Shown in pieces: positions 2,346 through 60,066 of a stretch of 64,000 bases of DNA. Position 1 is the stretch's first letter, and every line of letters begins with the position of its first letter. Source of the stretch: Escherichia coli (GTDB lineage: Bacteria; Pseudomonadota; Gammaproteobacteria; Enterobacterales; Enterobacteriaceae); the NCBI RefSeq assembly GCF_009931435.1, contig NZ_CP043414.1, one strand, 5' to 3'. The notes under the pieces were generated by a model. The model saw nothing but the letters and a program-made list of their open reading frames with translations, was not told where the DNA came from and ran no database searches. The position numbers were made by a program, and so were the translations under genes.

Positions 2346-3261
2346 GAATCTTGACCTTTTTTGCTGTTATCGCCACTCCCTGCCGTGGAAGTCAGCTTAG
2401 AACAATGTACTCCCCCAGGACGGCGTTTTGAAGGTCTGCAGAATAAGATTTTGCCAGAGGGGAAGACTCGATTGTGCTGTTAATAACTTAATAATGGCAA
2501 AATAATGAGGTGTATATGCTTAGTAATTAATGTTATGTAGTGAATTGTTCTGATTCTTAATTGTGAGTGTGGTTTTTTTATCTGTAAGATAATTGTTTGA
2601 AAATGCCTCGTTTAAGAATTCACTAATGAATCGTGATGATGATATTTCCGCATTACGGAGAGTTTAACAGCGTGATGATTTCCGAGGTGTCGTAATGGGT
2701 GCAAGGTGTGAAACTATTGTTAAGCGGGATTAATGAATGAGGATGATGCTAATTAATTATTATTTAATATTCAAAAAGGTTTTGTTGTGCTTATTAATAA
2801 TAGAAGATTACTTTGCCTAACATAACATAACTTTGCATCAGATAATTCGCAATGACCCTTATAAATAAAAGGTTTTTGGGGTAAAATGCTCGCATAAATG
2901 ACGGATCCCTGCTCTTGATGCCGCCTCACCATTGCTGTTTGTACGTGTTCGCGTATGACCAGCGATGCTGCACGAGAGTGGAACAAGGACTCACATTTAC
3001 ATTTATACAAACACGCGCATGTCATAAATACAAAAGAGTGAGTAACTTAATAGATATGCGATTCCTGAAGATATATTCTGTGATCTACTTCAGGCATTAT
3101 AACGGAACAATGTGAGTCGCTTTTTTAGTGCAACTCATATGCATTTTTACTTTCGTCCGGGTTCCGGATGAAACTGCCAGGGAGGCACATTACAAATGGA
3201 ATTGCTTGTTTGTGTGTGCACAGCATTAACCAGCTCAGTACGAGCCGCCAGTAAGTGATAA

Positions 3262-44935: not shown

Positions 44936-45154
44936 TTCCGCCACTCCGTGCCGGTTTACTGCACCGGCACATTCCCCCTCCGGCAAAATTTGTCCAACCT
45001 GTTGTACTCAATAAGAAAAAATCCGTGCGCTGATTCACAAATTTGTGCGTAATTTCTCCAGTCCGCTGGACGAGGTGCGGGATTTGATGCGCTTCACAAT
45101 TTTACTCCCCCTGAGCAACGAGACTGATTCCAGTATCTAAGACTGGAGTCCAGT

Positions 45155-50460: not shown

Positions 50461-54525
<4,065 letters not shown>

Positions 54526-54672
54526 TGTTATCCCTCTGAAGTTCGTTTTTTTACCATTTAGCCATAGTAAAAACATGAATTGTTTGATTTCGCGCATATT
54601 CGCTCATAATTCGAAAGTGAAACGTGATTTCATGCGTCATTTTGAACATTCTGTAAATCTTATTTAATAATG

Positions 54673-54688
54673 TGTGCGGCAATTCACA
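54673..54688. promoter_or_regulatory. CRP binding site in the glpA/glpT divergent control region
   Basis: tgtgc-ggcaat-tcaca matches the CRP consensus TGTGA-N6-TCACA in both half-sites. Confidence 0.6.
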
Positions 54689-54798
54689 TTTAATTTCTGA
54701 ATGTTTTCTTAACATCGCGGCAACTCAAGAAACGGCAGGTTCTCCCACTGAATCAGGCTGTTAATCATAAATAAGACCACGGGCCACGGAGGCTTTCA

Positions 54799-56157
54799 AT
54801 GTTGAGTATTTTTAAACCGGCGCCACACAAAGCGCGCTTACCTGCCGCGGAGATCGATCCGACTTATCGTCGATTGCGCTGGCAAATTTTCCTGGGGATA
54901 TTCTTTGGCTATGCTGCTTACTATTTGGTTCGTAAGAACTTTGCGCTCGCTATGCCTTACCTGGTGGAGCAGGGATTCTCACGCGGTGATTTAGGTTTCG
55001 CGCTTTCTGGGATCTCGATCGCCTATGGATTTTCGAAATTCATCATGGGTTCGGTGTCGGATCGCTCGAATCCGCGCGTTTTCCTCCCCGCAGGTTTGAT
55101 TCTGGCGGCGGCAGTGATGCTGTTTATGGGCTTTGTGCCATGGGCGACATCGAGCATTGCGGTAATGTTTGTACTGTTGTTCCTCTGCGGCTGGTTCCAG
55201 GGGATGGGGTGGCCGCCGTGTGGTCGTACTATGGTGCACTGGTGGTCGCAGAAAGAACGTGGCGGCATTGTGTCGGTGTGGAACTGTGCGCACAACGTCG
55301 GTGGTGGTATTCCGCCGCTGCTGTTCCTGCTGGGGATGGCCTGGTTCAATGACTGGCACGCGGCCCTCTATATGCCCGCTTTCTGCGCCATTCTGGTGGC
55401 ACTATTCGCCTTTGCGATGATGCGCGATACCCCACAATCCTGTGGCTTGCCGCCGATCGAAGAGTACAAAAACGATTATCCGGACGACTATAACGAAAAA
55501 GCGGAACAGGAGCTGACCGCAAAGCAAATTTTCATGCAGTACGTGCTGCCGAACAAACTGCTGTGGTACATCGCCATCGCCAACGTGTTCGTTTATCTGC
55601 TGCGTTACGGCATCCTCGACTGGTCACCGACCTACCTGAAAGAAGTTAAGCATTTCGCGCTGGATAAATCCTCCTGGGCCTACTTCCTTTATGAATATGC
55701 GGGCATTCCGGGCACCCTGTTATGCGGCTGGATGTCGGATAAAGTCTTCCGCGGTAACCGTGGGGCAACCGGCGTCTTCTTTATGACACTGGTGACCATC
55801 GCAACTATCGTTTACTGGATGAACCCGGCGGGCAATCCCAACGTCGATATGATTTGTATGATTGTCATCGGCTTCTTGATCTACGGTCCTGTGATGTTGA
55901 TCGGTCTGCATGCGCTGGAACTGGCACCGAAAAAAGCGGCAGGTACGGCAGCGGGCTTTACCGGTCTGTTTGGTTACCTGGGCGGTTCGGTGGCGGCGAG
56001 CGCGATTGTTGGTTACACCGTGGACTTCTTCGGCTGGGATGGCGGTTTTATGGTAATGATTGGCGGCAGCATCCTGGCGGTTATCCTGTTGATAGTTGTG
56101 ATGATTGGCGAAAAACGTCGCCATCAGGAATTACTGCAAAAACGCAATGGAGGCTAA
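54799..56157 (+). CDS. glpT: Glycerol-3-phosphate:phosphate antiporter GlpT (MFS)
   Basis: 452 aa; GGAGG RBS; 12-TM organophosphate:Pi antiporter. Confidence 0.92.
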
Positions 56158-56161
56158 TGGC

Positions 56162-57238
56162 ATGAAATTGACGCTGAAAAACCTTAGCATGGCGATCATG
56201 ATGAGTGGAATGATCATGGGAAGCAGTGCAATGGCGGCGGATAGCAACGAAAAAATAGTCATCGCCCATCGCGGTGCCAGTGGATATTTACCGGAGCATA
56301 CGCTGCCAGCAAAAGCGATGGCGTATGCGCAGGGGGCAGATTATCTGGAACAGGATTTGGTGATGACCAAAGACGACCATCTGGTTGTTCTGCATGACCA
56401 TTATCTCGATCGTGTTACTGATGTCGCCGATCGTTTCCCGGACAGGGCGCGTAAAGATGGCCGTTACTACGCGATAGATTTTACGCTGGATGAAATTAAG
56501 TCGCTGAAATTTACCGAAGGTTTCGATATTGAAAACGGTAAAAAAGTGCAGACTTATCCGGGGCGTTTCCCGATGGGTAAGTCTGACTTCCGGGTGCACA
56601 CCTTTGAAGAAGAGATTGAATTTGTTCAGGGGTTAAATCACTCTACCGGGAAAAATATCGGTATCTATCCAGAAATTAAAGCGCCGTGGTTCCATCATCA
56701 GGAAGGGAAGGATATTGCGGCAAAAACGCTGGAAGTGCTGAAGAAATATGGTTACACCGGCAAGGACGACAAAGTTTATTTGCAATGTTTTGATGTTGAT
56801 GAACTGAAGCGCATTAAAAATGAGCTGGAACCCAAAATGGGCATGGACCTCAATCTGGTACAGTTGATTGCCTATACCGACTGGAATGAAACGCAGCAGA
56901 AACAGCCGGACGGAAGCTGGGTTAATTACAGCTATGACTGGATGTTCAAGCCGGGCGCTATGAAACAGGTAGCGGAATATGCTGATGGCATTGGTCCGGA
57001 TTACCATATGGTGATTGAGGAGACATCGCAGCCGGGTAATATCAAGCTTACCGGAATGGTAAAAGATGCACAGCAGAATAAGCTGGTGGTGCATCCTTAT
57101 ACCGTGCGGGTCGACAAGCTGCCGGAATATGCCACCGATGTGAATCAGTTGTATGATGCTCTGTATAACAAAGCGGGTGTAAATGGGCTGTTTACTGATT
57201 TCCCTGATAAGGCAGTAAAATTCCTTAATAAAGAGTAA
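56162..57238 (+). CDS. glpQ: Periplasmic glycerophosphodiester phosphodiesterase GlpQ
   Basis: 358 aa from MKLTLKNLSMAIMMSGMIMGSSAMA (signal peptide); HRGASGYLPEHT catalytic motif. Confidence 0.92.
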   Translation: MKLTLKNLSMAIMMSGMIMGSSAMAADSNEKIVIAHRGASGYLPEHTLPAKAMAYAQGADYLEQDLVMTKDDHLVVLHDHYLDRVTDVADRFPDRARKDGRYYAIDFTLDEIKSLKFTEGFDIENGKKVQTYPGRFPMGKSDFRVHTFEEEIEFVQGLNHSTGKNIGIYPEIKAPWFHHQEGKDIAAKTLEVLKKYGYTGKDDKVYLQCFDVDELKRIKNELEPKMGMDLNLVQLIAYTDWNETQQKQPDGSWVNYSYDWMFKPGAMKQVAEYADGIGPDYHMVIEETSQPGNIKLTGMVKDAQQNKLVVHPYTVRVDKLPEYATDVNQLYDALYNKAGVNGLFTDFPDKAVKFLNKE

Positions 57239-57245
57239 TGCTACT

Positions 57246-57274
57246 GCAGGATGGCGTTTATGCGCCATCCTCTG
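57246..57274 (+). terminator. Hairpin just downstream of glpQ
   Basis: ggatggcg / cgccatcc stem with a 6-nt loop, 8 nt after the glpQ stop; no strong T-run. Confidence 0.45.
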
Positions 57275-57457
57275 CTAAAGCGAAATAATGCTACTACCGG
57301 TTATTCTTTTCATTAACGGGTGCATCCTGTAAAAAGATGCCAACATAATTTTCGTAAAACTCATTCGTTAAAAAAGCTAACACTGTGCATTGTTATTCTT
57401 TAAACAGTATGAATAGGTCTCAATAATAAATTGTAATGCAGTTTATACTGTAAAGTA

Positions 57458-58528
57458 TTATTCGAATTTCGGAAAGGTAAAGAAAATATTAATGTATCTT
57501 ATTAATTTATCATATTGTTCTTGGGTGAATGCTGTTTGCACACCTTCAGGGCAATATTTACCAGTAATAACCAGTTGCCCATTGCTGTGTTGTACCATTA
57601 AACCTTCTTTTTCCTTTGGATCTACAAAATTAGAATTATCAAATGTGAAGATATTTTTTTCCTGTTTTGAGTAAGTAAAGAAATCTCGTGTATAGCTGAA
57701 ACTATCATTTATTAATGGTGCTAACTTTTTGTCGGCGATATCGATAAGCTCACCACTTAATTTATTGATGTATTTAATTTGCTTCAATTTTTTCTGCGCT
57801 TGCACAATTTGCTTGTAGGTGTTTTCAATTTTTTTAGAAGAATTCTTAAATACATCATAGCGTTCCTCGGAGGATGTGTATTTGTACCATTCTGTATTTT
57901 TCTCAGAATGTTGTAGCAGGTCTGTATATTTTTTTTGATCGCTGTAAAGTTGACTTTTAATACTTTCCTCACTGCTGATCTTATAATGTTTATCAGAGTT
58001 GTTTGTTTTTGAAATGTCCTTTTCTGTCAGTGTCTGGTCCGTGTTGTGGGTATTTTCTTTTGCAACATGCTCATTGATGATGTTAATTGCAGTTTCATAT
58101 TCATTTAAATTTATTGTTCTTTGTGAAAGAAACCCTTCTTTGCTTTCGATACTCAAAACACCTTCGTTGTTTTCACCTCTGGTAAAGGTAAGGATATAGG
58201 GTTCATAATCTTCTGCAAATTCATTTTTATACGTTATGACATGCTCGACAAAATGTCTTATTGGTACGAAACCATAACTGTGAACGTCAATTTTTTTGGT
58301 CTTGACACTATCAATTTCATCTGAGGCTTTCGTGAAAAAAGCCAATAAATTAGCTATGTTGTCTGCTGAGGTTGATAACCCGAATCTACTTTGAGATATT
58401 TTTAGAAACTCATTGCAAAAAATCTCAAGTTTCGCGGTTTGTTGTGATTCTTTGTAAATTTCTGCTGTTTGCAATTTATTATTTTGTAAAATATTACAGC
58501 GAGATAAGTGAATAGATGTATTTGGCAT
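57458..58528 (-). CDS. Orphan hypothetical protein of about 356 aa, no family recognised; AT-rich, foreign-looking
   Basis: Long uninterrupted ORF in a very AT-rich block; ATG at 58528 preceded by AAGGA at good spacing (the track start at 58564 is a TTG); Lys/Glu/Ser/Asn-rich, no TM segment, no motif I can place. Confidence 0.6.
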   Translation of the reverse strand: MPNTSIHLSRCNILQNNKLQTAEIYKESQQTAKLEIFCNEFLKISQSRFGLSTSADNIANLLAFFTKASDEIDSVKTKKIDVHSYGFVPIRHFVEHVITYKNEFAEDYEPYILTFTRGENNEGVLSIESKEGFLSQRTINLNEYETAINIINEHVAKENTHNTDQTLTEKDISKTNNSDKHYKISSEESIKSQLYSDQKKYTDLLQHSEKNTEWYKYTSSEERYDVFKNSSKKIENTYKQIVQAQKKLKQIKYINKLSGELIDIADKKLAPLINDSFSYTRDFFTYSKQEKNIFTFDNSNFVDPKEKEGLMVQHSNGQLVITGKYCPEGVQTAFTQEQYDKLIRYINIFFTFPKFE

Positions 58529-58993
58529 AAATGATTCCTTGTAGTGTGAGTTAACAAGATACAATTTAATCTTTGCAGAATATATTCACTATCAAATTTA
58601 GCTCATTTTATTACGAAGACCTTTACGCATGTTAGAAAGTATCATTATTGTTAATAAATACGGTAATAAGTAACAAACAGATATTGATAACTTCCCTGAC
58701 AAGTTATTAGGTATCCCACTTGAAGATTGAGAATGGCTCCAGAGTAGACTGTGTACTGTTCGCCGGAGTGTCATTACTCTCAACAATCGGTTTTGACAGT
58801 GAGTCGGGCGCTTCATACCGGTTTCTACCTGGAGTCATTGTCACTTCCCTAATCTGGATAAATATTTATCGCTAATTCACAAAGTGGACCAAAATCAGGT
58901 GAAAACGAATTATTACGCATGGTAAAGACTACAGGCCAACTAAGTGTGGCGAATCAGACAATCTTACATTTGTCATCAATCTCATGTCTCACA

Positions 58994-59212
58994 TCAAATT
59001 TTTCCACTCACCACGAGTTGTTCCGTACACGTTTGTAGTAAAAACAGTGGACTGCCTTCTACCGGCTTTTCTTTAGCCAACAACGAAATCTGTCGATAGA
59101 AGGTTGGTTCGTGAGGAACGGAACACAATTCACCTGCAATGGTTTTCAGCGTTAACTCTGGTAATAAGGCGATGCCTAATCCCTGTCGAATAAAATTCAT
59201 CGCTGTATCCAT
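58994..59212 (-). pseudogene. yfaH: C-terminal fragment of a LysR-type regulator (yfaH-like remnant)
   Basis: 72 aa ORF resembling only the C-terminal effector-domain end of LysR proteins (GLGIALLPELTLK...); no HTH-encoding region upstream. Confidence 0.5.
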
Positions 59213-59415
59213 CTGATTAAATTCACATTTTATTTGCTGGGCGCACTATTAGTGGTAGTGGCTGGTGGAGTCTATGCGCTGCAAATGAAGGGTAAAAGCG
59301 GTGTCGCGCTAGTAGTGGCAAAAGAAATTCATTAATACGACACGTTTCATTAAGATTTTTCGCAGGTAACCACCTATAGTCATTGTCGTTAATAAAAAAT
59401 GACAGGCGATAGGGT

Positions 59416-60066
59416 ATGGCAGTTTCAGCAAAGCACGATGAATTTAATCACTGGTGGGCAACAGAGGGCGACTGGGTTGAAGAGCCTAACTATCGCCGTA
59501 ATGGTATGAGCGGGGTGCAATGCGTCGAGCGCAACGGCAAAAAGCTGTATGTGAAGCGCATGACGCATCATCTGTTTCATTCCGTACGTTATCCGTTCGG
59601 TCGACCGACGATTGTCCGTGAGGTTGCGGTAATTAAAGAGCTGGAACGGGCTGGTGTCATTGTGCCGAAAATCGTTTTTGGTGAAGCGGTGAAAATTGAG
59701 GGTGAATGGCGCGCGTTGCTGGTGACGGAAGATATGGCGGGGTTCATAAGTATTGCTGACTGGTATGCCCAGCATGCAGTAACACCTTATTCTGACGATG
59801 TTCGGCAAGCCATGTTGAAAGCTGTGGCGATGGCGTTTAAGAAAATGCATAGCGTTAATCGTCAGCATGGCTGTTGTTACGTTCGCCACATCTATGTGAA
59901 AACAGAAGGTATGGTAGAAGCTGGTTTTCTTGATCTGGAGAAAAGTCGTCGCCGCTTACGTCGGCATAAAGCGATTAATCATGATTTCCGCCAGCTGGAA
60001 AAATATCTGGAGCCGATCCCTAAAGCGGACTGGGAGCAGGTTAAAGCGTATTACTACGCCATGTAA
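59416..60066 (+). CDS. inaA: Acid-inducible Kdo/WaaP-family kinase-like protein InaA
   Basis: 216 aa ORF with ATG start; recognised as InaA. Confidence 0.88.
   Translation: MAVSAKHDEFNHWWATEGDWVEEPNYRRNGMSGVQCVERNGKKLYVKRMTHHLFHSVRYPFGRPTIVREVAVIKELERAGVIVPKIVFGEAVKIEGEWRALLVTEDMAGFISIADWYAQHAVTPYSDDVRQAMLKAVAMAFKKMHSVNRQHGCCYVRHIYVKTEGMVEAGFLDLEKSRRRLRRHKAINHDFRQLEKYLEPIPKADWEQVKAYYYAM

Follow-up and report, generated by a model that had tools for sequence, protein, structure and literature searches.

A cAMP-CRP site identical to a RegulonDB site of K-12 in the divergent glpTQ/glpACB control region of an Escherichia coli genome

Apart from its K-12 counterpart, the closest described relatives of the control region studied here fall into two groups, namely the class II CRP-dependent promoters galP1, mglB and gapA, in all of which the activator site is annotated at -41.5 (RegulonDB), and the divergent operon pairs malEFG-malK, nagE-nagBACD and melR-melAB, which have multiple CRP sites and are grouped in PMC3105977. 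The glp region resembles both. As at class II promoters, the glpT site is placed by published numbering at about -41.5, over the -35 region, the -10 element is weak with no recognisable -35, and expression is abolished without CRP or cAMP; unlike at galP1, mglB and gapA, the glp dimer would at once occupy the distal (-90.5) position of a second, divergent promoter, and the region is also under GlpR, FNR, Fis and IHF. Like the three divergent pairs it has several CRP sites, but its layout differs from theirs in being nearly symmetrical, with proximal and distal sites swapped between the two promoters at a spacing of 50 bp.

The K-12 version of this region is among the most heavily annotated E. 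coli control regions, with 21 transcription-factor sites for five factors at glpTQ (RegulonDB 8.5), and Fis and IHF are also annotated as regulators of the glpTQ/glpABC region. The RegulonDB rows reproduced in PMC3105977 (Table S4) place three CRP activator sites in the spacer, one of them at glpTQ -41.5 and glpABC -90.5 (ECK120012736), and genomic SELEX-chip of K-12 recovered the CRP box TGTGCGGCAATTCACA in the glpTQ<>glpABC spacer, with the remark that the role of each CRP site there ‘has not yet been established’ (PMC3105977). In enterohaemorrhagic E. coli (EHEC), a DNase I footprint of cAMP-CRP on the glpT promoter covered 25 bp including AATGTGTGCGGCAATTCACATT, spanning -30 to -52 of glpT, and neither a crp nor a cyaA mutant showed detectable activity of the glpT promoter (Kurabayashi et al. 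2017, PMC5352689). PhyloScan ranked glpA/glpT second to third genome-wide for cross-species CRP sites, with species treated as independent.

In the window (the whole stretch of E. coli DNA that was analysed, 64,000 nt), glpA and glpT can be read from the sequence as divergent genes, with 54526-54798 between their start codons as a 273-bp spacer; glpA begins with the ATG that is read in reverse complement at 54523-54525, and glpT with the ATG at 54799-54801. The coordinates that the initial annotation had given for divergent glpACB and glpTQ around a spacer of this length proved exact, and NCBIfam models confirmed the two operons, as follows.

50461-51651, minus strand: glpC (NCBIfam equivalog model GlpC, 764 bits)
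51648-52907, minus strand: glpB (NCBIfam equivalog model GlpB, 898 bits)
52897-54525, minus strand: glpA, anaerobic glycerol-3-phosphate dehydrogenase subunit A, 542 aa (NCBIfam NF008313, 1105.3 bits; start aligns with K-12 b2241)
54788-54792, plus strand: Shine-Dalgarno GGAGG of glpT, within the invariant block CACGGAGGC (read from the sequence)
54799-56157, plus strand: glpT, glycerol-3-phosphate transporter, 452 aa (NCBIfam NF008433, 976.7 bits; RefSeq annotation of a 100%-identical strain concurs)
56162-57238, plus strand: glpQ (NCBIfam equivalog model GlpQ, 708 bits)

We rejected a longer glpA reading frame (52897-54597, 566 aa), which would have its ATG ahead of the putative glpA transcription start, whereas the 542-aa form matches both the equivalog model and K-12 b2241 over its full length, beginning at residue 1. 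The spacer has a G+C content of 37%, and Rfam yielded no RNA family in 54300-55000 (best E-value 0.076, far under the gathering score). When a 473-bp query across the spacer was compared with 5426 complete E. coli genomes, 5419 gave matches, with 100% identity to E. coli 2020CK-00188 and 95-99% to most of the others. Relative to K-12 MG1655, 5 of the 273 positions differ (the run 54546-54552 is longer by one T, and 54651, 54697, 54745 and 54795 are substituted), and none of these falls in the three CRP 22-mers. All three RegulonDB sites are identical here, as are the flanking genes and their orientation, and nothing functional separates this region from the K-12 one. The T run lies in the glpA leader and has seven T here as opposed to six in K-12 MG1655 and the other aligned Escherichia; since it is downstream of the putative glpA transcription start, this length polymorphism leaves the spacing between CRP sites and promoters unaltered.

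The control elements of the spacer that are discussed below are the following; CRP site 1 is one of three annotated CRP sites and adjoins or may overlap FNR and GlpR elements.

54670-54691, centre 54680.5, unstranded: CRP site 1, 22-mer ATGTGTGCGGCAATTCACATTT (matrix score, published records, conservation)
54620-54641, centre 54630.5, unstranded: CRP site 2 (weak), AAACGTGATTTCATGCGTCATT (RegulonDB glpTQ -91.5 / glpABC -40.5; 7.01 bits)
54580-54601, unstranded: CRP site 3 / FNR-like motif, TTGTTTGATTTCGCGCATATTC (RegulonDB glpTQ -131.5 / glpABC -0.5; 9.44 bits)
54710-54715, plus strand: putative glpT -10 hexamer TAACAT (conservation and published numbering)
54590, minus strand: putative glpA transcription start (back-calculated from RegulonDB -90.5, -40.5 and -0.5)

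To score these sites we used a symmetric 22-bp CRP weight matrix trained on 184 RegulonDB sites from PMC3105977 Table S4, from which the glpTQ and glpABC rows had been excluded to avoid circularity, and which yields the textbook consensus AAATGTGATCTAGATCACATTT. The initial annotation had pointed to tgtgcggcaattcaca at 54673-54688 as a match to both CRP half-sites, and both its placement and its letters are exact: TGTGC-GGCAAT-TCACA agrees with TGTGA-N6-TCACA at 9 of the 10 core positions. The enclosing 22-mer, 54670-54691, scores 15.21 bits, which is above threshold in the CRP matrix scan that had been proposed as a check, ranks first among the roughly 64,000 positions of the window and equals the 88th percentile of the 184 training sites, so that its description as the clearest regulatory site of the window holds as far as CRP matrix scores are concerned. 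The matrix itself is validated by the agreement of its top matches with experiment, as three (54670, 45080 and 3076) of its four highest-scoring positions coincide with published SELEX-chip CRP boxes.

Taken by themselves, the sequence statistics for CRP site 1 are not overwhelming, and the simplest rival explanation is that a functionless stretch of AT-rich intergenic DNA happens to resemble the CRP consensus. In its favor, the core pattern shows no enrichment, the bare TGTGAN6TCACA with at most one mismatch occurring four times in the window against 2.0 expected (an unexceptional and uninformative count, for which reason the weight matrix was used in its place), and an equal or better 22-mer turns up somewhere in 11% of random 64-kb sequences (first-order Markov nulls). 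Once location is counted, however, the match exceeds chance, with only about 0.005 matches of at least 15.21 bits expected per 273-bp spacer of this AT-rich composition, and the matter is settled by conservation, which is specific to the half-sites across genera and includes a fixed spacing to a conserved -10 element (see below), together with the published binding data. The 22-mer at 54670-54691 is identical to the RegulonDB site, to the sequence footprinted in EHEC and to the SELEX-chip box. The comparison with published footprints that the initial annotation had suggested thus finds cAMP-CRP protection at this very sequence and not elsewhere, and its view that the site is expected biology of the glp regulon is borne out by the RegulonDB entry. 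The footprint on the identical sequence has already refuted chance resemblance as far as sequence and literature can do so, and we give that explanation practically no credence.

We consider it very probable that 54670-54691 is the main site at which cAMP-CRP binds the divergent glpTQ/glpACB control region. CRP site 1 is the K-12 RegulonDB site itself and not just a relative of it, which means that it was already known; in a control region as heavily annotated as this one, it carries little weight as a discovery. 

FNR is a paralogue of CRP, the two bind related palindromes, and both glpT and glpA are FNR-activated, so that site 1 might instead be bound chiefly by FNR and mediate the anaerobic induction of both genes. 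This is highly improbable. Site 1 has TGTG/CACA half-sites spaced by N6 and not the TTGAT-N4-ATCAA arrangement, and no match to the latter palindrome of at least 7/10 overlaps 54670-54691, which places the site outside this definition of an FNR site. Furthermore, the published FNR(D154A) footprint protects 70 bp that begin 32 bp upstream of the CRP footprint, without covering it, and include TTGAT-TTCG-CGCAT (PMC5352689). In window coordinates this footprint corresponds to about 54567-54636; CRP site 2 is within it, and a consensus scan of the sequence upstream of the glpT start gave a single FNR-like motif, this same TTGAT-TTCG-CGCAT at 54584-54597.

Neither promoter could be recognized from consensus. 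A sigma-70 scan of the spacer gave no -35/-10 pair for glpT or glpA, as is expected for activator-dependent promoters, and the -10 assignment of glpT consequently depends on conservation and on published numbering. From the RegulonDB position of -41.5 and the footprint limits of -30 to -52 in PMC5352689, the glpT start was back-calculated to about 54720-54722, the two sources differing by about 2 nt, and the conserved TAACAT, which lies at a gap-free distance from CRP site 1, is consistent with both numberings. By the RegulonDB positions, glpT would start at 54722 and glpA at 54590, a distance of 132 bp. The one sigma-70 match in the spacer was TTGAAC-18-AATAAT on the plus strand (54642-54671), whose transcription start would fall inside CRP site 1; we judged it a chance match in AT-rich DNA and discarded it as a promoter, although it could alternatively be a promoter that is occluded by CRP.

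With glucose absent and cAMP high, a CRP dimer would occupy the half-sites TGTGC and TCACA, and, being centred near -41.5 of glpT, over the -35 region, it would act as a class II activator. Since glpT has a weak -10 hexamer (TAACAT) and lacks a usable -35, CRP would be indispensable for its transcription. The same dimer, at about -90.5 of glpA, may serve as the distal partner of the weaker -40.5 site (54620-54641), and the proximal site of each promoter would be the distal site of the other, 50 bp apart. We infer the class II contact and the contribution at glpA from position and from the established CRP promoter classes; for the role of site 1 at glpA (-90.5), the sole source is database annotation.

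That last point leaves room for site 1 to activate glpT only and to contribute little to glpA at -90.5, with the cAMP dependence of glpA coming from the proximal sites or arising indirectly. The footprint and the crp/cyaA reporter data do concern glpT alone (PMC5352689), but RegulonDB annotates the site as a glpABC activator at -90.5, a pair at -40.5 and -90.5 is a known synergistic tandem-CRP geometry, and the weakness of the proximal glpA site (7.0 bits) makes help from a strong distal one plausible. On balance we regard a glpT-only role as unlikely, though it deserves some weight, and prefer the shared use of site 1 by both promoters.

Both operons are repressed by GlpR, which acts by way of several operators and looping, and the repression is lifted by glycerol-3-phosphate. 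Besides cAMP-CRP, induction at this locus would also need glycerol-3-phosphate to free the GlpR repressor from operator-like TTCG repeats over 54579-54650, possibly including the CRP site itself, and FNR binding further upstream (about 54567-54636) would raise expression under anaerobic conditions. CRP-dependent glpT expression sets fosfomycin uptake, and mutations in CRP site 1, cyaA, crp or ptsI lead to lower fosfomycin susceptibility.

A pattern scan of species-representative genomes with the GlpT motif FFGYAAYY gave 120 loci, and we aligned the spacers of 22 Enterobacteriaceae with a divergent glpA (Escherichia, Citrobacter, Enterobacter, Lelliottia, Pluralibacter, Kosakonia, Shimwellia and others). 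Across these 22 spacers the half-sites of CRP site 1 show identities of 0.91 and 0.88, compared with 0.63 for the N6 centre, 0.54 for the stretch from site 1 to the -10 and 0.47 for the glpT leader. The -10 hexamer is kept as TAACAT, TACCAT or TACAAT (identity 0.85) and is gap-free from site 1 in 21 of the 22, while the orthologous 22-mers reach at least 9 bits in 18. The left half of CRP site 2 (CGTGA), its only good half-site, has an identity of 0.82, and of the blocks tied to annotated binding sites, site 3 is conserved best (0.90). The block 54781-54794 around the glpT Shine-Dalgarno reaches 0.88, with CACGGAGGC invariant throughout. Of 5419 E. coli genomes, 3516 carry the 45-mer 54652-54696 unchanged, and the variants inspected differ in the stretch 54651-54665 and, inside the site, in the N6 only (GGCAAT to GGTAAT or GTTAAT), leaving the half-sites intact. 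Among the 22 spacers and the E. coli variants alike, then, the half-sites are conserved, in keeping with purifying selection, and the centre is free to vary, as in a CRP site. Judged from these alignments, conserved half-sites around a variable centre at a fixed distance from the -10 are the signature that a protein-contacted palindrome at a set promoter position would leave.

Over a wider range of taxa, CRP sites scoring 12 bits or more occurred within 450 bp upstream of glpT at 53 of 70 Enterobacterales loci, 17 of 19 in Pasteurellaceae (median 20 bits), 4 of 5 in Succinivibrionaceae and none of 20 in other taxa; shuffled upstream regions attained 12 bits in 2-17% of trials. In four Kosakonia-like loci (L008, L036, L117 and L119) the orthologue of site 1 is degenerate, at -12 to 9.5 bits. 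In three of them (L008, L117 and L119) the best CRP match, at about 11.7 bits, is AAGTTAGAnnTTTGTCATATTT or a close variant of it, situated about 25-30 bp upstream of that orthologue; in L036 the best match is the orthologue of site 3. This apparently reflects binding-site turnover within a conserved gene arrangement in the Kosakonia-like clade, and the loss of site 1 there means that it is not universally required in this architecture. 

The scan also returned GlpT proteins far closer to that of E. coli (78-87% identical) than phylogeny predicts, in Nocardia acididurans (L118) and in Bartonella apihabitans and Bartonella metagenome-assembled genomes (L050, L062 and L101), one of which (L050) also has a divergent glpA (78%). 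None of the four has a strong upstream CRP site, and their GlpT sequences suggest horizontal transfer or contamination.

One feature of CRP site 1 invites a second reading, which would complement CRP binding and not replace it. The same 20 bp may be a composite element, both a CRP site and a GlpR operator in register with a tandem operator array over the glpA promoter, such that GlpR and CRP compete directly at glpT and the non-consensus C (TGTGCG, not TGTGAN) is retained as part of a GlpR half-site, TGTTCG. For the operator we used as consensus the 20-bp palindrome WATGTTCGWTAWCGAACATW, which is attributed to papers from the Larson laboratory. Positions 54671-54690 match it at 13 of 20, centred exactly on the CRP centre at 54680.5, and another 13/20 match is centred 40 bp away at 54640.5. 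The C of TGTGC is kept in 18 of the 22 spacers even though the CRP consensus has A, and the 21 sites for five factors annotated at glpTQ would also fit overlapping use. Against this, TGTGC is present in several real CRP sites of the training set, and the GlpR scan discriminates poorly, with 306 window positions at 12/20 or above and AT-rich DNA scoring 10-11 everywhere. We therefore rejected the scan as a definition of operators, finding it too permissive, and we regard the composite element as a tentative possibility that is nevertheless rather doubtful. The best match to the operator consensus in this high-background scan was 54579-54598 (15/20), and TCG repeats with a roughly 10-bp periodicity occur at 54590, 54600 and 54611.

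A further conserved element lies in the glpA leader. The 12-bp block CATTTAGCCATA at 54555-54566, about +24 to +35 relative to the putative glpA transcription start, has an identity of 0.92 across the 22 spacers, above that of the CRP site, and no annotated site was matched to it; from conservation, it could be a regulatory element. Read on the glpA strand, from 54565 to 54551, the block gives the 4-codon mini-ORF ATGGCTAAATGGTAA, whose ATG is replaced by GTG in most other genera; it has no Shine-Dalgarno, and we set it aside as an unlikely cause of the conservation. Both the GlpR overlap and this leader block may already be covered by Larson 1992 and Yang 1997, which are said to be the primary GlpR footprint papers.

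Elsewhere in the window, the yfaY-yfaX (rhmR) spacer contains two CRP-like sites 59 bp apart, at 45021-45042 (12.5 bits) and 45080-45101 (14.4 bits), both just upstream of the yfaX ATG at 45108, which makes tandem CRP sites probable for the L-rhamnonate operon. In reverse complement, 45080-45101 is the SELEX-chip box TGTGAAGCGCATCAAA assigned to yfaXWVU (PMC3105977 Table S3). The matrix match TTCTGTGATCTACTTCAGGCAT at 3076-3097 (11.9 bits) corresponds to the SELEX-chip box TGTGATCTACTTCAGG of the nuoA-lrhA spacer. Between glpQ and inaA, the stretch 57240-59400 holds pseudogene remnants according to the identical RefSeq strain, namely a hypothetical gene with a frameshift (57458-58528) and a fragment of the LysR family, and a CRP-like match of 10.75 bits is found at 59209-59230, upstream of inaA (59416-60066).
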